Below, one piece after another: positions 1,976 through 24,288 of a DNA stretch of 60,542 nucleotides (position 1 is the stretch's first letter; every line of letters begins with the position of its first letter). A program made the position numbers and the translations under genes. The notes under the pieces were generated by a model. It ran no database searches and had not been told where the DNA came from. It saw only the letters and a program-made list of their open reading frames with translations. The stretch is from Bacillota bacterium (GTDB lineage Bacteria; Bacillota; Desulfotomaculia; Desulfotomaculales; JBFMEU01): positions 1 to 60,542 of the forward strand of contig JBFMEU010000005.1 in the NCBI GenBank assembly GCA_040753155.1, written 5' to 3'.

Positions 1976-2632
1976 ATGTCAGATGTACCGCGGGGAGCAA
2001 TACTGCAGCGTGACAAGGAAACTTACGCCATAGTCCCCAAAACCTTGATGGGCCTGGTTACACCGGACATCCTTGAGAATATTGCCCATGTTGCCAGAAA
2101 GCATCAGATACCCATTATCAAGATTACCTCGGCCCAGAGGTTTGCCCTGGTGGGCATCAAGCCGGAGACCGTTGAAGATGTCTGGAACGATTTGAATATG
2201 GAGCAGGGCAAGGCGGTTGAGCTGTGCCTGCATTACGTTCAAGCCTGTCCAGGAACCGCCGTATGCCGCTTTGGAGTCCAGAACTCCCTGGGCCTGGGCC
2301 AAAAGCTCGACCAACTGCTGGGGCATATGGAAATGCCGGCCAAGGCCAAAATCGGGATCTCCGGGTGCCCCATGTGCTGTGGTGAAAGCTATGTCCGGGA
2401 CCTGGGTATTATGGGCAAGAAAAGCGGCTGGACCCTTATCTTCGGGGGCAACGCCGGCGCCAGGCCCCGGGTGGGCGATGTGATTGCCGAGGGCCTTACC
2501 GATGAGCAGGCCCTTGATCTGACCCAAAAGTGCTTTGACTACTACATTGCCGAAGGCAAGAAGAAGGAGCGCGCATCCAAGTTCATCGAACGCATCGGGC
2601 TGGAGGAATTCAAAAAAAATGTTCTCGGCTAA
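1976..2632 (+). CDS. Small nitrite/sulfite reductase-like 4Fe-4S (siroheme-type) protein
   Basis: ACPGTAVCRFG and KIGISGCPMCC motifs; AGGAGG RBS. Confidence 0.8.
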   Translation: MSDVPRGAILQRDKETYAIVPKTLMGLVTPDILENIAHVARKHQIPIIKITSAQRFALVGIKPETVEDVWNDLNMEQGKAVELCLHYVQACPGTAVCRFGVQNSLGLGQKLDQLLGHMEMPAKAKIGISGCPMCCGESYVRDLGIMGKKSGWTLIFGGNAGARPRVGDVIAEGLTDEQALDLTQKCFDYYIAEGKKKERASKFIERIGLEEFKKNVLG

Positions 2633-2648
2633 CGGCACAGGATTTACA

Positions 2649-2680
2649 ATGACCGCGGGAGTCTCTTCCTGCGGTCATTT
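2649..2680. terminator. Hairpin between convergent genes, probable intrinsic terminator
   Basis: ATGACCGCGGGA-gtctct-TCCTGCGGTCAT followed by T residues. Confidence 0.6.
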
Positions 2681-2749
2681 ATTGGGGCAGCAGTGCCTTA
2701 CCTTCAAACGTGTAATCAAATCCCACAACTTTAATACCATTATATGCCA

Positions 2750-4039
2750 TTACCTGCAAGTGGTACCTGAATTTCCCCTATCCTGGTCCCGGCCGGCCAT
2801 AATCAGCCCCCGGCCCAGCCAGGCAACCCCCACCAGCCCTATGGCGGCCCCCAGGGCCAGAGCCGCCGGTGAACCCCAGAGCCGGGAAACGGCGCCGCTT
2901 AAAAGGCTGCCGAAGGGCATCATCCCAACAAACAAGAGGAAATAGACACTCATAATCCTGCCCCGCAGATGGTCCGGCACCCGCAGCTGGATAGAAGAGT
3001 TCAAGGAGGCCGTAAAGGTAATCATCGCCCAGCCGGTAACCAAAAGCAGAAACAGGGACAGGGGAAACAGCCGCACCGGGGCCAGCATAATCTGGGAAAC
3101 ACACATCACCAGGGCGCCCGCTATAATCAGCGCCCGCTTGGGTTCCCAGCGACTGAAATAAGCCAGGCTGACGGACCCGATCAGCGCCCCGGCGCCCAGG
3201 GCCGACATCAACAGCCCAAAGCCCCGGGGTCCCTGGCCCAGCACTTCCCGGGCAAATACCGGAATCAGCACATGAAAATTCATGGCAAAAACGCTCATCA
3301 CACCCATCAAAGCCAGGCCATATTTAACAAAGGGCGTTTTCATTATATATTGCAGGCCTTCTTTTATTTCCCCCAGCATGCTGCCGCCGTTACCCTGTTT
3401 TTTTACAACCTCACCGTTAAGCCTGATCAACCACAGACCTGTCAGAACAGCCACAAAGCTGGCCGCGTTAAGCAGAAAACAGACCGCCAGGCCCACCATA
3501 CTGATAAGAATACCGGCCACCGCCGGCCCCACCACCCGGGCCCCGTTAAATACCATGGCATTAAGGGCTATGGCGTTCATCAGATCCTGGCGGCCCACCA
3601 GCTCAATGATCAAGGATTGGCGGGCGGGCATATCCAGGGCATGGGCAAGCCCCCCCAGGGAAGCCAGCACCAGCACATGCCAGTACTGCACCACCCCCGT
3701 CAGGGTAAGCAGCCCCAGGGCCAGGGCCAGCGCCATCATCACACTTTGGGTCACCAGCAGCAAACTGCGCTTGGGAAAGCGGTCGGCCAGCACCCCGGTA
3801 AACAGGGAGAACAATAGAATGGGGGCAAACTGCAGTGTGCCCACCAGCCCCAGCAAAAAGGCAGACCCGGTTAACTCCAGAATCAGCCAGGCCTGGGCCA
3901 CGGCTTGCATCCAACTGCCCACCAGAGAAAACAACTGGCCCAGCCAGAACAGGCGAAAATTCCGGTGGCGCAGGGCAGACCAGGCCCCGGACAGATTTTT
4001 TCCACTTTTCAGGGCCGCTTCCGCTTGTATTCCCTTCAC
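2750..4039 (-). CDS. MFS transporter
   Basis: About 12 hydrophobic segments; GVLADRFPKR motif A; ALRHRNFRLFW N-terminus. Confidence 0.9.
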   Translation of the reverse strand: MKGIQAEAALKSGKNLSGAWSALRHRNFRLFWLGQLFSLVGSWMQAVAQAWLILELTGSAFLLGLVGTLQFAPILLFSLFTGVLADRFPKRSLLLVTQSVMMALALALGLLTLTGVVQYWHVLVLASLGGLAHALDMPARQSLIIELVGRQDLMNAIALNAMVFNGARVVGPAVAGILISMVGLAVCFLLNAASFVAVLTGLWLIRLNGEVVKKQGNGGSMLGEIKEGLQYIMKTPFVKYGLALMGVMSVFAMNFHVLIPVFAREVLGQGPRGFGLLMSALGAGALIGSVSLAYFSRWEPKRALIIAGALVMCVSQIMLAPVRLFPLSLFLLLVTGWAMITFTASLNSSIQLRVPDHLRGRIMSVYFLLFVGMMPFGSLLSGAVSRLWGSPAALALGAAIGLVGVAWLGRGLIMAGRDQDRGNSGTTCR

Positions 4040-4263
4040 CTCCGGGATAATAGACCCTTGATATTTAAATAAAGGGAAAATCCACTATACCCTTGAAGTT
4101 ATTATACTATCAGGGATGGTGATTTTCAATGATTGCCACTTTTTTCTAAATTTACGGCTTGGAAGTGGGTATTTCACAACAGTGCGCAGCTTATGAACAA
4201 GCGGCAAGCATCCGTCCTCAAGCAAATGTATTTTCAAGACAGGGGTTAAATGGAGAGATCTGC

Positions 4264-8625: not shown

Positions 8626-8939
8626 ACTTCACCCTCTCATATACAATCATATCCTATCATTCATCATCATATATAAACATTAATTTACATTTATGTTTAT
8701 ATATGCTATATTATAACATATGCCTAAACCAAAAATAATCTAGCCATCATAATGCCGCCCTTGTCCCCGTTAACATCTCCAAAAATGCGGCCTTATTGCT
8801 TTCCGGCTATCCACTATTGGGATATAATAACTATAATTAAACTGCAAAGCAAAGCACATTGCCCATCATGGCACCGTTAAAGGAGGTTTGAAACAGCTAC
8901 AAAATAATTGGACATAATTATATAAAAATGATAAATCCA

Positions 8940-8969
8940 TTGACACCAAACATGTGTACATGTTAAACT
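8940..8969 (+). promoter_or_regulatory. Sigma-A-like promoter of tnpA with a palindrome in the spacer
   Basis: TTGACA-N18-TAAACT with extended TG; AACATGTGTACATGTT in the spacer. Confidence 0.55.
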
Positions 8970-8989
8970 GTTGGCAGGAGATGATGTCA

Positions 8990-9637
8990 ATGGAAAAATT
9001 ACTGACCACTAATCAGTTAGCTAAACTATTAAATGTTTGGCCTGAAACATTGCGCCGGTGGGAAAGAGAAGGAAAATTAAAACCTTTGCGCACACCCGGC
9101 GGCCATAGGCGCTATAAAGAATCACAAATAATGGCTTTAATTGGCGAAGAGATAACTGTGAATGAAACAAAACAATGCGCTATTTACGCCCGCGTATCTA
9201 CTGCCAAACAGGCTGAAGCCGGGAATCTCCAGCGGCAAAAAGAACGCTTAATAGCTTATGCGGTAGAAAAAGGTTATCAGGTTAAAGCAGTATATACCGA
9301 AATCGCATCCGGTCTGAACGAAAACAGGCGGGAGCTTGCTAAATTAGCCAAAACAGCCACAAAAGGCGAAATAGACGTAATTGTCATCGAATATAAAGAC
9401 CGGTTGACCCGTTTTGGCTATAAGTATTTGGAGCAGTATTATCGGTCATGCGGTGTTGAAATCGACATCATAGAATTGGACGAAGAAAAATCGCCCCAAG
9501 AAGAACTGGTAGAAGACATGATCGCCATTGTAACCAGGTTTTCCGCCAAGATATATGGCAAACGAGGCGGGCGTGTGGCAAAAAAGCTAACTGAATTTAT
9601 TGAGCAGGAGGTGGAGGCCTACGAAAACCACGGTTAG
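8990..9637 (+). CDS. tnpA: IS607-family transposase (MerR-like HTH plus serine recombinase)
   Basis: TLRRWEREG...RTPGGHRRY HTH; YARVST catalytic Ser; DRLTRFG; EELVEDM. Confidence 0.95.
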   Translation: MEKLLTTNQLAKLLNVWPETLRRWEREGKLKPLRTPGGHRRYKESQIMALIGEEITVNETKQCAIYARVSTAKQAEAGNLQRQKERLIAYAVEKGYQVKAVYTEIASGLNENRRELAKLAKTATKGEIDVIVIEYKDRLTRFGYKYLEQYYRSCGVEIDIIELDEEKSPQEELVEDMIAIVTRFSAKIYGKRGGRVAKKLTEFIEQEVEAYENHG

Positions 9638-11075
9638 AGGCATCATCCTCCAGTTAACGGACGTTCAGAAAGACTTCCTCGACAACCTGATGGACTGCTA
9701 TTGCGCTGCCGTAAGGTGGTCATTTAAAAGATTACTGGACGGTTGGAAAACCCAGGACATACGACTATCCGCCCAAAGCAAATTTAACCTAAATTCCCGC
9801 CAATCCAATGATGCGGTTCATGACGCCCGGGCAACAATAAAATCACAGATCGAGCTGGTTAAACTAAATCACGCAGGCGCCGCAAAGAAAGTGGAATTTA
9901 CCCAAAAGCGCCTGGCGAAAGCCAGGTCTCCCGGAAAAAAGGCCAAGTTAAAAAGACGCCTGGACAAAGAAGAAAGGAAATTGACATTTTGGCAGAAACA
10001 CCTTGATGCCGGCACATTTCCGCCAGTGGTGTTTGGCGGTAAAAAACTATTCCATGAACGCTGCAAGGGTAACATAACCCGTGAAGAATGGCGCCAAGCC
10101 CGGAGCAACCGCTACCTTTCCAGAGGTGACAAAACCAAGGGCGGCAACCTGAACACAAGGCTACACACCAAAGACGGCAACATCTACCTGGACATAGTCG
10201 CAGAACCGGTCGAGACTGAAAAGTCCGTCCGGTACAAACGTATCACAGTCCCGGTCTACCTGGCTCATAAACCTTCCAAGAAAACCGGGGAAATCAACGG
10301 GCGCAACTACCGGCAAATGGTTCTGGACCATCTCAAAACCGGCAGCGCCTATCAGATAGAGCTCCTTCGTGAAAACGGTCGTTATTACGTCCACGTTACC
10401 ATCGAAGAAGAAATCCCGATCCCGGTTATCGCCCATAATGGAGCAATCGGAGTTGACACCAACCCGGACGGACTGGGCCTAGCCCGCACAGATTACCTGG
10501 GACAATTCAAAGAAAGCCTTTGGTTGTCACAGGGCGAGTGGACATATGCCCGGAGCAACCGGCGGGACAACCTGATCGGCGAGGCCGCGTCACTGGTGGT
10601 GAAAATGGCGAAACAGCTGAATTGCGCCCTTGCTGTTGAGGATCTGGAGTTAAAAAACGACAAATCCGTCACAGCCAAGTTCAACCGGATGAGTCACGGC
10701 TTCGTTTGGTCGAAATTTTTGCAGGCCATAGAGCGCAGAGCCGCCCGCGAGGGAGTGCCCCTGGTAAAAGCGCCGCCGCCGTTTACCTCAGTCATCGGCA
10801 TATTGAAATATCAACAGCAGTACGGGATCTCAAACCACGAAGCAGCGGCGTATACCATAGCCCGGCGCGGCCTGGGATATGGAAATGAAAAGGTGCCTAA
10901 AAAGTTGGTGCAAAAGTACGTCAAGAAAAAAGAGGCCTTCGCGTTGTTAACCAACTGGAAGCAATGGAGTTCAGTTAAAAAAGCGGTGATTGCCGCAATA
11001 AAAAAACAAATCAAACGGGAGGTGAAAGGCCTGGTTTCCTGGCAGCACCACAGAAAACAACTGATAGCGGGTTAA
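9621..11075 (+). CDS. tnpB: TnpB-related RNA-guided nuclease, zinc-finger-less variant, with ACG at the expected start
   Basis: RuvC-I IGVDTN, RuvC-II AVEDL, C-terminal TSVIG..KY..SNHEAAAYTIARRG; GGAGG upstream of ACG 9621-9623; overlaps the tnpA end. Confidence 0.85.
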   Translation, partial: TKTTVRGIILQLTDVQKDFLDNLMDCYCAAVRWSFKRLLDGWKTQDIRLSAQSKFNLNSRQSNDAVHDARATIKSQIELVKLNHAGAAKKVEFTQKRLAKARSPGKKAKLKRRLDKEERKLTFWQKHLDAGTFPPVVFGGKKLFHERCKGNITREEWRQARSNRYLSRGDKTKGGNLNTRLHTKDGNIYLDIVAEPVETEKSVRYKRITVPVYLAHKPSKKTGEINGRNYRQMVLDHLKTGSAYQIELLRENGRYYVHVTIEEEIPIPVIAHNGAIGVDTNPDGLGLARTDYLGQFKESLWLSQGEWTYARSNRRDNLIGEAASLVVKMAKQLNCALAVEDLELKNDKSVTAKFNRMSHGFVWSKFLQAIERRAAREGVPLVKAPPPFTSVIGILKYQQQYGISNHEAAAYTIARRGLGYGNEKVPKKLVQKYVKKKEAFALLTNWKQWSSVKKAVIAAIKKQIKREVKGLVSWQHHRKQLIAG

Positions 11076-11459
11076 ACCCTTGGCCATAAAGTTTGCGGCG
11101 CGGCACAGTACACGCAGTGAAAGGCTGTTGTCGCGAGTAACGACCAGGCGGTGGGTAACACCCCCTTCCGGGCAGAACTGGACGTCAGACATCAGGCGTC
11201 AGACATCGGACCTTTGGGGTCAGGCTAACGGGGTCAAAAAACCCGAAAGACAAACCACAAAGAAATCCGACGGCCGACGCCCAACGACCGACGACTGTAA
11301 AGCCAGGCGGCGTTTGAAGCCACCCGGAATATGGACGAAAGTCCATAGCTCAGCAGTTGAATCCTGTGACACTGCCTCCCGTTAGTCGGCGGGAGAGAAA
11401 ACTAAATATATCTGGATTATCCTGTATAAATCAGATTTCTTTAGTTTTCAGAAACCAGG
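11017..11459 (+). ncRNA. Predicted TnpB omegaRNA/right-end RNA scaffold
   Basis: Lies between the tnpB 3' end and the IS right end; closing stem 11030-11038/11451-11459; hairpins TATGGAC-GAAA-GTCCATA, CTCCCG..CGGGAG and GAAAACTAAA..TTTAGTTTTC. Confidence 0.7.
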
Positions 11460-11468
11460 TCTCCGCCA

Positions 11469-11696
11469 ATGCCGCGCAAGTTTAAAGTTATCCTTTCCTG
11501 GGATAATGAAACGCAGGTCTATGTTGTAACCGTTCCCGCATTGCCGGGCTGCGTTACTCAGGGGAAAAACCGTAAGGATGCCCTGGAGCGGGTCCAGGAA
11601 GCTATAACGGGCCATATTGAAGCCCTGAAGCTGATCGGCCAACCGGTACCGCAGGGAGATGTTGAGTTTGCCGAAGTGCAGGTAAGCGTTTCATGA
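11469..11696 (+). CDS. hicB: HicB-family antitoxin, short form without DNA-binding domain
   Basis: YVVTVPALPGCVTQGKNRKDALERVQEAI. Confidence 0.9.
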   Translation: MPRKFKVILSWDNETQVYVVTVPALPGCVTQGKNRKDALERVQEAITGHIEALKLIGQPVPQGDVEFAEVQVSVS

Positions 11697-12053: not shown

Positions 12054-12725
12054 TTACAGCCGCTCCAGCGGGCTTCTGCACGGCCAAATTCGCCACCGCT
12101 GGAGAATTTCAAACCCAACAACGTTGATATACTGAACCCCCTGCATCAGGAAATCCTTTACAACATTGGCCGTGGGATACCGCTCTTCATCGGGGGGTGA
12201 AGGACAAAGCCGGCTTGTCAAGGCCGAAGGTAAAGCTGTCTTGATACCCCCCCCATTCTCTCGTCGATAGAAGTCCGTCCCCTTGGAAGTCTTGCCCAGC
12301 AGCCGGCGTGGTGTTAGCTTGGGGCTAAATTCAAGATCTTTGCCTGCCGGCGCCCACTTCTTTAAAAACTCCTTGAGGATCTCATCATCTATGCGTACGC
12401 CCAATTGCTCATCTTCGGCCACAGCCAGGCGGTATAGCAATAGTTTGCCCTGCTGGGAATCTATAACGTTACCCATGTCCAGCCACAACTCAATTTCAAT
12501 GGGGTCACCCTGCTTCATAAATGTAAGGTCACGGAATTCAGGTGCCCGTTTCTCCACAGCTTTCCGGGGCCCGTGTTCAAGGCAGTCCTTAACAAACTGT
12601 AGGGCATCCAGAAAAGTGCTTTTACCGCTGGCATTTGGCCCGACCAGGACATGGAATCTGTTCAGCGACAGATTCTTCAGGAATTTTATAGCCTTATAGT
12701 TTTTGACAGTTATGCCGGCAATCAT
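12054..12725 (-). pseudogene. Truncated duplicate of the ATPase at 21504-22730
   Basis: 12126-12737 nearly identical to 22131-22742; compensating +2/-2 indels; lacks the signature/Walker B half; ATG overlaps the hsdR stop (ATGA). Confidence 0.9.
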
Positions 12726-20498: not shown

Positions 20499-20569
20499 AA
20501 ATAGGCATCTGGCAAACGGCAAAATTTTAGGTTCAGGCAGTCAATTCAGAAAGATTATTGACTGTCGTG
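20499..20569. repeat. 71 bp direct repeat B, a copy of the nadE 3' end and downstream sequence
   Basis: 69/71 identical to 24218-24288, which includes the last 5 codons of nadE. Confidence 0.9.
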
Positions 20570-20877: not shown

Positions 20878-21507
20878 CTAGTAACTTGGGCCGGGGAACC
20901 ATGACTGCAGTAACGAGACAACAGCTCTAAAACTGTCACTATTTTGCCAGTCAACTAGACTGGCTACCCTGGCAATCTCCTCAAAGTCCTTGGGAGAGAT
21001 AGTTCTTCTGGCCTTCTCAATACACACATACTCAAAAAGTTCTTTTGGCTGCTCTTGCTTGACTCTAGCCACAGTTGTATTTTTCTTTTTGACATATTCT
21101 TCAACCCAAATTTGCAGGTCAGCAGTTGATATGCCTAAACGTTTGCAAAGGGAGGCCTCATTATGCCAGAGCCATTCCTCCAGTTCAGGTACCAGAACCA
21201 CTGCCCCCGAGTCTCCCTGCCAGGTAACCAGGTTCAGGCGTTCTTGCACGATCTCTATACACCGCCGGGGCTCAAGGCTATCAAATCCGCTTCCGTGATG
21301 GTCCCAGATCAGCAGTACCTTATGATATTTCCCTTTATACCTGCGGACAAATACATGTCCATCTTTGACCACCCCGGAATCACGCATTGTATGCCTGTAC
21401 ACATCAAAGGCAACCGGGCGGATGCCAATGAACATATGCCGTTTTAAAACAGACGTCATAGCTGCCATGGCGTCAGCATCGGCAGTTAGCACAAAAAGGT
21501 CTTTCAT
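20878..21507 (-). CDS. Mad4-like / TOPRIM-like partner of a defence ATPase
   Basis: MKDLFVLTAD, IGIRPVAFD, RDSG, WDHHGSG, PELEEWLW, PKE; overlaps the ATPase stop. Family recalled from the MADS Mad4 pattern, not searched. Confidence 0.6.
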   Translation of the reverse strand: MKDLFVLTADADAMAAMTSVLKRHMFIGIRPVAFDVYRHTMRDSGVVKDGHVFVRRYKGKYHKVLLIWDHHGSGFDSLEPRRCIEIVQERLNLVTWQGDSGAVVLVPELEEWLWHNEASLCKRLGISTADLQIWVEEYVKKKNTTVARVKQEQPKELFEYVCIEKARRTISPKDFEEIARVASLVDWQNSDSFRAVVSLLQSWFPGPSY

Positions 21508-22730
21508 CCAAGCACCCCCGAGGCAAAAACGGTGGCCAGATCAGGGTAGCCGTCCCAATCTTTTAGCTCGGGGTGTTTCTTCCCCGGGATTATATGGGTT
21601 CCGTTCTCGTCCCGGGCAAAAATAAGCAATACCTTTCCCTCCACCTGCTGCACCACCAGGGGAGAGTGGGTGGCCACCAGCATTTGCGCCCCCGGTATGG
21701 CGGAGAGGGAACGGATGATTATCTCAATGGCCCGGGGGTGTACGCCGTTTTCAGGTTCTTCCACCATGTAAATCCCCGGCTTTGGCGGCAGGAAGGCCAG
21801 CAGGGAAAGGGCAAGCATGCGCAGCGTTCCGTCACTGAGCAGCCAATTGGGACAACGAAAGCCGTTTTTATACCTGAGAACAATATATTCGGCATTGTCA
21901 GGCTCCCTTTTGGCCCAGCCAATCTCGTCAATATCCTCAATGGCAAAACGCAGGTGGTCTGTCCACCGCTCCAAAGCTTCGGTTCTATTGACCTTTTCCA
22001 CATTTCTGGACCTGCCGTTATGCTCTCCCCGCAGGTACCCTACAACCCTGGCCAGGTTTGTGCCATCCAGCTTAAGTTCCGTGGAACTGGTGGCGAGGCA
22101 GGGCTCACGCATGGCCCTGCTGTTCAGCTGGATATACTGAACCCCCTGCATCAGGAAATCCTTTACGACATTGGCCGTGGGATACCGCTCTTCGTCAGGA
22201 GGTGTGAAGGACAAAGCTGGCTTGTCAAGGCCGAAGGTAAAGCTGTCTTGATACCCCCCATTCTCGCGCCGATAAAAGTCCGTCCCCTTGGAAGTCTTGC
22301 CCAGCAGCCGGCGTGGTTTTAGCTTAGGGCTAAATTCAAGATTTTTACCCGCCGGCGCCCACTTCTTTAAAAACTCTTTGAGAATTTCATCATCTATGCG
22401 TACGCCCAATTGCTCATCTTCGGCCACAGCCAGGCGGTATAACAATAGTTTGCCCTGCTGGGAATCTATAACGTTACCCATGTCCAGCCACAACTCAATT
22501 TCTATCGGGCCGCCCTGCCTCATAAATGTAAGGTCACGGAATTCCGGGGCCCGTTTTTCCACAGCTTTCCGGGGCCCGTTTTCAAGGCAGTCCTTAACAA
22601 ACTGTAGGGCATCCAGAAAAGTGCTTTTACCGCTGGCATTTGGCCCGACCAGAACATGGAATCTGTTCAGCGACAGATTCTTCAGGGATTTTATAGCTTT
22701 ATAGTTTTTGACAGTTATGCCGGCAATCAT
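21504..22730 (-). CDS. ABC/AAA_21-type defence ATPase (Mad3-like)
   Basis: VGPNASGKST, LSDGT signature, MVEEPENGVHP, ATHSP. Confidence 0.85.
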   Translation of the reverse strand: MIAGITVKNYKAIKSLKNLSLNRFHVLVGPNASGKSTFLDALQFVKDCLENGPRKAVEKRAPEFRDLTFMRQGGPIEIELWLDMGNVIDSQQGKLLLYRLAVAEDEQLGVRIDDEILKEFLKKWAPAGKNLEFSPKLKPRRLLGKTSKGTDFYRRENGGYQDSFTFGLDKPALSFTPPDEERYPTANVVKDFLMQGVQYIQLNSRAMREPCLATSSTELKLDGTNLARVVGYLRGEHNGRSRNVEKVNRTEALERWTDHLRFAIEDIDEIGWAKREPDNAEYIVLRYKNGFRCPNWLLSDGTLRMLALSLLAFLPPKPGIYMVEEPENGVHPRAIEIIIRSLSAIPGAQMLVATHSPLVVQQVEGKVLLIFARDENGTHIIPGKKHPELKDWDGYPDLATVFASGVLG

Positions 22731-22874
22731 AGATCCACCCCCTATCACCACAGTCTTACTGCTTGCTTAAACTACCTGTTCCTCTGAAAATCCACATAAT
22801 ACTATCGTTATGCTTTAATTAAAATATCTGCTCTAAACATGGCCAAATTTTACCGCACCGGCCAGGAGCACCTC

Positions 22875-23991: not shown

Positions 23992-24147
23992 CTAAGCTTG
24001 TTTCTCGAAGGCGTCCTTGCCCACACCGCACACGGGACAAACCCAGTCCTCGGGCAGGTCTTCAAAAGCTGTGCCGGGGGCCACTCCGTCGGCGCCTTCC
24101 GCCGGGTCATAAACATAGCCGCAAACTGTGCATTCCCACTTATCCAT
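23992..24147 (-). CDS. Rubredoxin, 51 aa, not in the ORF track
   Basis: [41 protein letters not shown]. Confidence 0.97.
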
Positions 24148-24154
24148 GGCACTG

Positions 24155-24202
24155 CCTGGTTTCTAAAGCATACGCCTATAAACCAGGAATTTTCACCTCC
24201 TT
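24155..24202 (-). other. SD plus hairpin insert resembling a miniature TnpB RNA end, in the rubredoxin leader
   Basis: AAGGAGG-TGAAAATT-CCTGGTTT-ataggcgtatgcttt-AGAAACCAGG-cagtgcc-ATG. Confidence 0.65.
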
Positions 24203-24217
24203 CTTTGTAGATTTTTG

Positions 24218-24288
24218 AAATAGGCATCTGGCAAACGACAAAATTTTAGGTTCAGGCAGTTAATTCAGAAAGATTATTGACTGTCGTG
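24218..24288. repeat. 71 bp direct repeat B, native copy overlapping the nadE stop
   Basis: Matches 20499-20569. Confidence 0.9.

Follow-up and report, generated by a model that had tools for sequence, protein, structure and literature searches.

Debris of an IS607-family element in a rubredoxin leader, and the settling of this family between Shine-Dalgarno sequence and start codon

How does a gene come to have its strong Shine-Dalgarno (SD) sequence far from the start codon, with a hairpin in between? The question is raised by the leader of a rubredoxin gene on contig JBFMEU010000005.1 of a Bacillota bacterium (order Desulfotomaculales; assembly GCA_040753155.1, 2.75 Mb, 91.6% complete), of which the stretch from position 1 to 60,542, here called the window, was analysed. 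No second copy of the gene is found in the assembly. The feature is real, and debris of an already known type of element explains it well. We consider it probable that the hairpin is a 63-nt internally deleted remnant of an insertion sequence (IS) of the IS607 family, and that translation of rubredoxin now likely depends on a GGAGG inside this remnant, with the hairpin holding it near the AUG. A full-length member of the same family lies upstream of the hicB gene in the same window.

The rubredoxin leader and its homology to the IS607 family

On the minus strand the leader reads AAGGAGG (24202-24196)-TGAAAATT-CCTGGTTT (24187-24180)-17 nt loop-AAACCAGG (24162-24155)-CAGTGCC-ATG (24147-24145), which is the layout described in a first-pass annotation of this DNA. 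Its parts and the adjoining DNA are as follows, where RE denotes the right end of the element.

23992..24147, minus strand: rubredoxin gene, 51 aa (Pfam PF00301, 79 bits, residues 3-47 on profile positions 1-47 of 47)
24148..24154, minus strand: 7-nt spacer CAGTGCC from relic to start codon, inside the family range of 5-12 nt
24155..24217, minus strand: micro-relic of an IS607-family element, whole unit, 63 nt (by homology to a micro-copy on contig C3, a mini-element on contig C107 and tnpB 3' ends)
24155..24164, minus strand: 3' part of the relic, the RE terminus AGAAACCAGG, with the 3' stem arm AAACCAGG at 24162-24155
24163..24179, minus strand: 17-nt loop, the remainder where an RNA core of about 300 nt would have been deleted
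24180..24217, minus strand: 5' part of the relic, by homology the last tnpB codons and the start of the 3' structured RNA, holding the SD-like AAGGAGG (24202-24196) and the 5' stem arm CCTGGTTT (24187-24180)
24218..24288, minus strand: 71-nt stretch (nadE end and intergenic DNA) adjoining the relic, 97% identical to 20499-20569

The 5' part can be aligned with the 3' end of a tnpB-like open reading frame (ORF) in genome G026 (L013 248-282) with about 32 of 35 positions identical by hand count, and its counterpart there encodes ..EITKKEVKSLVFW... Matches to this part are likewise found inside the C107 mini-element and in the C3 micro-copy. The homology of the leader to the family extends about 17 nt upstream of the GGAGG, as far as 24217, and judged by this alignment the GGAGG is itself element-derived. 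The 3' part is identical to the final 10 nt in 17 of the 20 RE copies of this genome, and TTTAGAAACCAGG of the leader is also found in the RE of the C107, C18 and C30 copies. The C3 micro-copy (C3:11192-~11250) is a second micro-relic, 7 nt ahead of the ATG of a DUF3243 gene; its 3' part (TGTGTTTTAGAAACCAGG) equals the C107 RE in every letter, and its 5' part has its match in the interior of C107. Both the rubredoxin and the DUF3243 leader retain just the two stem strands, about 22 nt of tnpB 3' sequence reading AAGGAGGTGA, and a short loop. The rubredoxin relic thus consists of parts homologous to the element, in element order and orientation, at the usual position of the family before a start codon, and it forms a hairpin because its two parts are the strands of the closing stem of the element RNA. 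Among the origins suggested in the first-pass annotation a collapsed relic is the best fit, given the homology of both parts to a C107-type mini-element and the presence of another micro-relic.

That an ordinary leader hairpin should resemble IS ends by chance has a negligible probability in our estimate. The single words are indeed common: CCTGGTTT has 352 copies in the genome, where a Markov model predicts 363, and this 8-mer alone is no evidence of relatedness, while GGAGGTGAAA alone (27 copies) is a generic strong SD. The composite GGAGGTGAAA..CCTGGTTT..AAACCAGG, however, is confined to family members, its four occurrences in the assembly being three IS copies and the rubredoxin leader. 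A strict short form of the pattern occurs twice in this genome (rubredoxin and C3:11192-11235), with no occurrence in a backwards control, and was not found among 161 other genomes of the order. A chance likeness is further contradicted by the agreement with tnpB 3' ends beyond the SD, by the shared borders of the copy on C3, and by a distance from RE to start that is usual in this family. The count of AAACCAGG is inflated by an unrelated dispersed repeat ending GTAAGCATTCAGTAAACCAGGTGGAGGCACGGCGTTATCGTTA (e.g. C1:32476-32530 and C13:23225-23280), probably the end of another IS or miniature inverted-repeat transposable element (MITE); it has 21 copies with an identical 26-nt core and about 33 including variants, all distinct from the IS607 family.

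Populations carrying the relic were found in three other studies, X3 and X5 being sediment DNA from one of them. Contigs of X3 and X5 (DNA) and of X6 (an RNA library) preserve the relic but for one change, and contigs of X7, covering part of it, show no change. A related-population variant at 24207 restores the base of C3 and C107. The related-population sequence diverges from the window exactly at 24217/24218, and the 71-nt duplicate ends at the same point; as read from the sequence, this duplicate marks a rearrangement breakpoint at the upstream edge of the relic. Since X3 and X5 carry the relic yet are without the hicB element, the relic predates the insertion at hicB. In all eight full-length rubredoxin genes of relatives (8/8), a purine run resembling an SD stands 4-10 nt ahead of the start by hand count, with no hairpin. 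No orthologous rubredoxin leader was found among the compared order-level relatives, in which the coding parts alone align and the leaders are canonical and non-syntenic.

We regard it as highly improbable that the hairpin is an active miniature transposon, that is, 41 bp between GG dinucleotides which TnpA could move. Each border has a GG, and AAGGAGG-7 nt-ATG would result from excision; deleting 24155-24195, as proposed in the first-pass annotation, does leave exactly this arrangement. The 41-nt GG-to-GG segment is, however, not a natural unit, as the family homology goes on about 17 nt farther upstream. No left-end (LE) motif, TTTGAAGCAGCTACA..., nor any other SD was found upstream of the relic, and the sequence beyond 24217 is unrelated and strain-variable. 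With the LE missing, the relic does not have the two ends of a MITE or mobilisable mini-element, and the proposed SD and stem mini-element is therefore unlikely to be a unit that TnpA can excise. Further, there are two copies only, with loops that differ, and the relic is fixed in populations without the hicB element.

The parent element and the gap between SD and start codon

The full-length element of the window occupies the gap between the SD and the start codon of hicB.

8882..8886, plus strand: host SD GGAGG of hicB, now 2.6 kb from the start codon
8887..11459, plus strand: full IS607-family element, 2573 bp (ends ambiguous by at most 4 nt, with AGGT on both sides; from X3/X5 joints and comparison of copies)
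8954..9637, plus strand: tnpA, serine recombinase with an N-terminal MerR-type helix-turn-helix (HTH) (NCBIfam NF033518 IS607 family transposase, 207.9 bits at a cut-off of 110; Pfam Resolvase and MerR)
9600..11075, plus strand: divergent tnpB-like gene, 491-codon ORF (TIGR01766, 38.5 bits at a cut-off of 32)
11016..11459, plus strand: 3' structured RNA region, predicted to be omega-RNA-like, with 5' arm CCTGGTTTC at 11030-11038 and RE terminus AGAAACCAGG at 11450-11459
11469..11696, plus strand: hicB, with its SD-to-start gap occupied by the full element (Pfam HicB_lk_antitox, residues 6-62 on profile positions 2-57)

The comparison of the rubredoxin leader with this element in the first-pass annotation holds for the sequences, GGGAGGTGAAAGG-CCTGGTTTC (i.e. 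GGGAGGTGAAAGGCCTGGTTTC) being present at 11017-11038 and AGAAACCAGG at 11450-11459, 9 nt before the hicB ATG at 11469; the segment 11017-11043 lies inside the tnpB-like ORF and not, as had been supposed, in a leader. At both loci the two ends match, close the same stem and end 7-9 nt before a start codon (7 nt at rubredoxin, 9 nt at hicB), in agreement with what had been proposed.

By blastn and nhmmer, two copies of the family are complete (C5, C29), others, at the ends of contigs, are partial (C18, C87), and about 18 are shorter derivatives of 170-420 nt. All 20 RE-bearing copies end in AGAAACCAGG or a near variant, and an ORF start (at least 40 aa) lies at +5..+12 after the RE in 17 of them (binomial p 8e-13), the exceptions being C4, C44 and C16+ (a Fic fragment). 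The same criterion is satisfied at 13% of 20,000 random positions and at 13.9% of 17,296 other CCAGG sites. Pfam anchors the N-termini (profile positions 1-2) of FabZ, AccC, PdxT, isocitrate/isopropylmalate dehydrogenase, the acetyl-CoA synthase beta subunit, an MqnA-type protein, CGGC, DUF433, biotin-lipoyl and HicB proteins downstream of these copies, and FabZ, PdxT and the Mqn protein are encoded by single copies in the assembly. At the other end, GGAGG precedes 11 of the 15 LE regex matches in this genome, the other four showing 3-4 mismatches. In other genomes of the order (TnpB 66-84% identical) the ORF criterion is satisfied by 13 of 16 copies, and all LE matches (9/9) follow (G)GAGG. 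A host GGAGG SD thus marks, at its 3' edge, the exact insertion point of the IS607/TnpB family, and the RE then comes to lie 5-12 nt before the start codon. The first-pass claim of an SD-targeting IS607/TnpB family with small derivatives is supported by these counts at both ends, together with two empty sites.

One of these is the hicB site, where one contig each of X3 and X5 joins 8883 to 11457, skipping 2573 nt with 4 letters ambiguous. Before the insertion the site read AAAGGAGG, 9 nt, ATG, and no duplication was created. The other is in genome G141, where ..CTTGAGGAGG runs directly into ATGAAAGAA-ATG with GAGGAGG at the junction, and its congener G143 holds the element between GGAGG and a 9-nt spacer. 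Because the empty sites lack the element yet keep the GGAGG, the GGAGG at 8882-8886 is the host's SD. A metagenome scan with PdxT gave no empty pdxT site, the sole near-identical contig (L067) being filled and breaking inside the repeat, and comparison of the flank in five congeners gave no usable empty site for the G101 copy.

Some details of single copies may be recorded here. In G143 the LE and the flank after the RE both begin CTGAAAG, where the G141 empty site has ATGAAAG (L019 ~3576 and 1210; L149 ~1500); this one-base difference lies right at the crossover, and the LE start of G143 departs from the family TTTGAAG. A degenerate RE copy (..CGGAAGCCAGA) in L064 (C16:31952-33351) stands 5 nt before the start of the gene for CdhC, the acetyl-CoA synthase beta subunit, which is central to the Wood-Ljungdahl pathway and has a 41%-identical paralog 6 kb away. 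The 420-nt minis (e.g. C24, L051 150-175) contain, as seen by eye, TTACTC-17 nt-TATAAT with TG just before the -10 box, a promoter-like site from which transcription would run across the RNA region and on into the host gene.

The element is bounded by GG at each junction and lacks both terminal inverted repeats and a target-site duplication, and its empty site is precise, as is characteristic of IS607. This is in line with the strict requirement of TnpA(S) for GG (bioRxiv 10.1101/2023.11.20.567912) and with the AGGAG or GAGGG target-adjacent motifs (TAMs) of IS607 TnpBs (PMC11061315 and a 2026 review, PMC13565253). The tnpB-like ORF reaches 69 bits with guided_TnpB, below the cut-off of 100, and has no Pfam match; its RuvC-I D and RuvC-II E motifs align weakly (E 0.003) to Cas12f/TnpB chains. 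The clade as a whole (alignment A3) keeps RuvC-I D (GxDTNPDG) and RuvC-II E (VEDL). After ..FTS the zinc-finger cysteines are missing, and an invariant His (H402 of A3) stands at the expected third RuvC Asp, followed by E, Q or H. As these alignments show neither the zinc-finger cysteines nor the third Asp, nuclease activity of the TnpB-like protein is uncertain. The true start of the gene is probably the GTG at 9633, and the N-terminal extension from 9600 is unreal since other copies carry an in-frame TGA at codon 5. The in-frame TGA in many tnpB copies sits in this extension, within the SD region of tnpB itself.

The span from the 5' arm to the RE is about 340 nt in most full copies. For 16 copies RNAalifold predicted 45 pairs, 13 of them with compensatory changes, all in internal helices. 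A predicted closing stem of 12 bp pairs CCUGGUUUC.UGG (last tnpB codons) with UCA-GAAACCAGG (RE terminus). The region is thus predicted to hold a conserved structured RNA that shares sequence with the tnpB 3' end and terminates at the RE, as expected of a TnpB guide (omega/reRNA) locus. An Rfam scan of 8700-11600 gave just two chance-level miRNA matches, with no RAGATH-18 at E<=1. A group I intron (IStron) was rejected, no group I ribozyme core being found in that scan. The RE terminus is the complement of the extended SD with GG changed to CC (AGAAACCAGG vs AGAAAGGAGG). In CboIStron the RE carries a TAM look-alike for self-avoidance, with a TGGG TAM and TCGG at the RE (bioRxiv 10.1101/2023.11.20.567912); by analogy the SD-like RE may most simply be seen as a TAM look-alike, altered so that TnpB would spare its own donor site.

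Summed contig depth of the X6 RNA library over 11276-11523 of the window is 2146-4230 near the RE vs 32 in hicAB, and that of the DNA runs about 300-400 vs 6-12; these depths sum about 20 copies in contigs and are not interpretable.

In TnpB RNAs the RE terminus followed by the flank is the normal junction of scaffold and guide, and the rubredoxin leader has this order too. It might therefore be asked whether the leader is a guide-like or regulatory RNA, whose AGAAACCAGG and following 'guide' would pair in trans with CCUGGUUUC of the element RNA or recruit TnpB to the rubredoxin start. A TnpB role limited to binding is conceivable for a protein lacking the zinc-finger cysteines and with His for the third RuvC Asp. 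We find this reading very unlikely all the same, as the relic is without any internal helix of the ~340-nt RNA, where the covariation lies, and the complementarity of 8-9 nt is already satisfied in cis. The relic retains the closing stem only (alignment A2), and for the same reason, every internal helix being missing, the unit resembling a CRISPR RNA (crRNA) that was put forward in the first-pass annotation is unsupported.

The DNA between the IS element and rubredoxin is rearranged and has many toxin-antitoxin genes (hicAB, a PIN-domain ORF). An ATPase-like ORF (415 aa) has a truncated second copy there (12054-12725 vs 21504-22751), and the 20499-20569 duplicate adjoins another repeat (TTATCACTGAACTAATCCGCCCTAAG...), which recurs reversed at the start of contig C17.

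Fold of the leader and translation of rubredoxin

A leader segment of 48 nt folds into a hairpin with a free energy of -14.8 kcal/mol and a z-score of -2.7 (1 of 200 shuffles as good). In a 71-nt context the stem is predicted to grow to 11 bp, and the GGAGG is left free, 5 nt before the stem, with 3 nt between stem and AUG. The distance of 48 nt from GGAGG to AUG is then reduced to 5+3 unpaired nt, or to 8+7 nt if the 8-bp core alone is formed. The caution in the first-pass annotation that about 15 unpaired nt would separate SD and AUG holds for the core and not for the 11-bp fold. The predicted fold therefore has a distant SD, a stable intervening stem and a functional spacing once folded, which are the structural features of a split ribosome-binding site. 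The duplex with the anti-SD sequence (assumed here, as the 16S 3' end is missing from the assembly) is estimated at -16.9 kcal/mol for the GGAGG and at -5.3 kcal/mol for the RE terminus.

The following course of events would account for the leader. An element would once have been placed between the original rubredoxin SD and the AUG; deletions would then have taken away its left end, its genes and the core of its RNA, together with the original SD; the GGAGG left over from the element, 48 nt from the AUG, may now act as SD; and the hairpin, in the fashion of T4 genes 25 and 38, may leave about 8 unpaired nt in the 11-bp fold, or 15 nt in the 8-bp core. The split sites of these two T4 genes are reportedly treated in Nivinskas 1999 and Malys 2009. 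As such split sites work in T4, a hairpin-bridged and transposon-derived ribosome-binding site is by analogy the favoured reading, and on the modelled fold a hairpin-bridged split site at rubredoxin is plausible.

The same remnant may also be a neutral scar, with a hairpin that has no role or is mildly inhibitory, rubredoxin being translated from the weak RE terminus AGAAACCAGG or with little help from an SD. We hold this to be possible, if on the unlikely side. The RE terminus stands at canonical spacing in all family insertions, including those at the single-copy fabZ and pdxT, and starts adjacent to the RE must consequently be usable; its duplex with the assumed anti-SD is the one of -5.3 kcal/mol given above; and the 420-nt minis have no strong internal SD (AAAGGAAAAAGG), yet their genes persist. 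The fold, on the other hand, pairs the RE terminus fully within the stem and leaves the much stronger GGAGG free, and two independent micro-relics have retained exactly the SD-like motif, both stem strands and the spacer.

Several observations weigh against the favoured account of the leader and its translation and should be set beside those in its favour. In longer contexts the z-score of the hairpin is weak, about -0.86 to -1.7, and in a 76-nt context of the C3 copy a competing fold wins. The weak SD-like RE stretch 7 nt before the AUG could serve instead of the GGAGG. No covariation was found in the closing stem, both strands being nearly invariant. One contig of the X6 RNA library spans leader and rubredoxin uninterrupted, which as contig evidence cannot show transcript ends. 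Since there is neither an LE nor a host GGAGG upstream, at least two deletions, or one deletion and an adjacent rearrangement, have to be assumed at two loci. Finally, the relic-free rubredoxin allele that had been proposed as a check was not found in the X3, X5, X6 and X7 contigs, where no joint skips the relic, nor among the leaders of relatives, so that the history of insertion and deletion at rubredoxin is inferred only.

It is tempting to speculate further that this IS607 lineage is a translation-compatible transposon, a wider proposal that we put forward tentatively and think rather doubtful. Such an element would home to the gap between SD and start codon, that of housekeeping genes with one copy (fabZ, pdxT) included, and would keep the genes translated by a built-in module, namely an SD-like motif in the last tnpB codons that is set beside the start by the closing stem of the guide RNA, and/or an RE which mimics an SD. 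The rubredoxin and DUF3243 leaders would then represent the module stripped to its minimum and domesticated as the only ribosome-binding sites of these genes.

Meaning and comparison with known systems

Our analysis explains an odd 5' leader as transposon debris and indicates that the only strong ribosome-binding site of a gene can be transposon-derived. It also shows the actual home of IS607 elements with SD-like TAMs, the gap of 5-12 nt between SD and start codon, including that upstream of the single-copy fabZ and pdxT, and raises the question of how a gene can still be expressed once 0.2-2.6 kb has been placed inside its ribosome-binding site. For annotation it follows that starts after ...AGAAACCAGG with no nearby SD are real in this genome group. 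For genome editing, a TnpB-like clade with a likely GGAGG TAM and an unusual RuvC-III region may be of interest.

What emerges is a habit of the family and possibly a translation-preserving module, neither of which we found described. No paper describing, by its title or listing, an SD-to-start niche of IS607/TnpB was found in open-access PMC and bioRxiv; supplements of the cited papers may list insertion contexts. The searched passages of PMC11061315 and PMC13565253 do not mention Shine-Dalgarno sequences, and those of PMC11061315 do not contain 'start codon' either.

Among known systems, the ISFba1 group of IS607 elements with RAGATH-18-derived guide RNAs (PMC11061315) shares with the present family a TnpA serine recombinase with MerR-type HTH together with tnpB or, here, a tnpB-like gene, GG at both junctions without target duplication, a purine-rich SD-like motif at the left end, and a guide-type RNA from the tnpB 3' end to the RE. 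It differs in that the RNA described here has no Rfam match, and that the TnpB-like protein here, of about 480 aa, has no Pfam match and no zinc-finger cysteines. CboIStron, an IS607-type element with a group I intron (bioRxiv 10.1101/2023.11.20.567912), is likewise a TnpA(S)/TnpB element able to reside in expressed host sequence at little cost, with a mutated TAM look-alike at the RE (here GGAGG/CCAGG). However, no group I intron was detected here, the RNA-library contigs showed neither a spliced nor a joined form, and any harmlessness of the present element would act at translation initiation and not at splicing.

MITEs, palindrome-associated transposable elements (PATEs) of IS200/IS605 and solo IS remnants resemble the family in being short, dispersed and internally deleted copies (about 18 here), whereas the rubredoxin and C3 pieces have no left end, measure about 60 nt and retain only the strands of the RNA closing stem.

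A functional parallel may be found in T4 genes 38 and 25, where a hairpin-bridged split between SD and AUG works, shortening 22 nt to 5 and 27 nt to 11, respectively (PMC3014915). As there, a strong SD lies far from the AUG at rubredoxin (48 nt) and a stable hairpin shortens the spacing, here to a predicted ~8-15 nt. In T4 the function has been proven by mutation, whereas at rubredoxin it is predicted from the fold; and at rubredoxin both the hairpin and the SD would be derived from a transposon.

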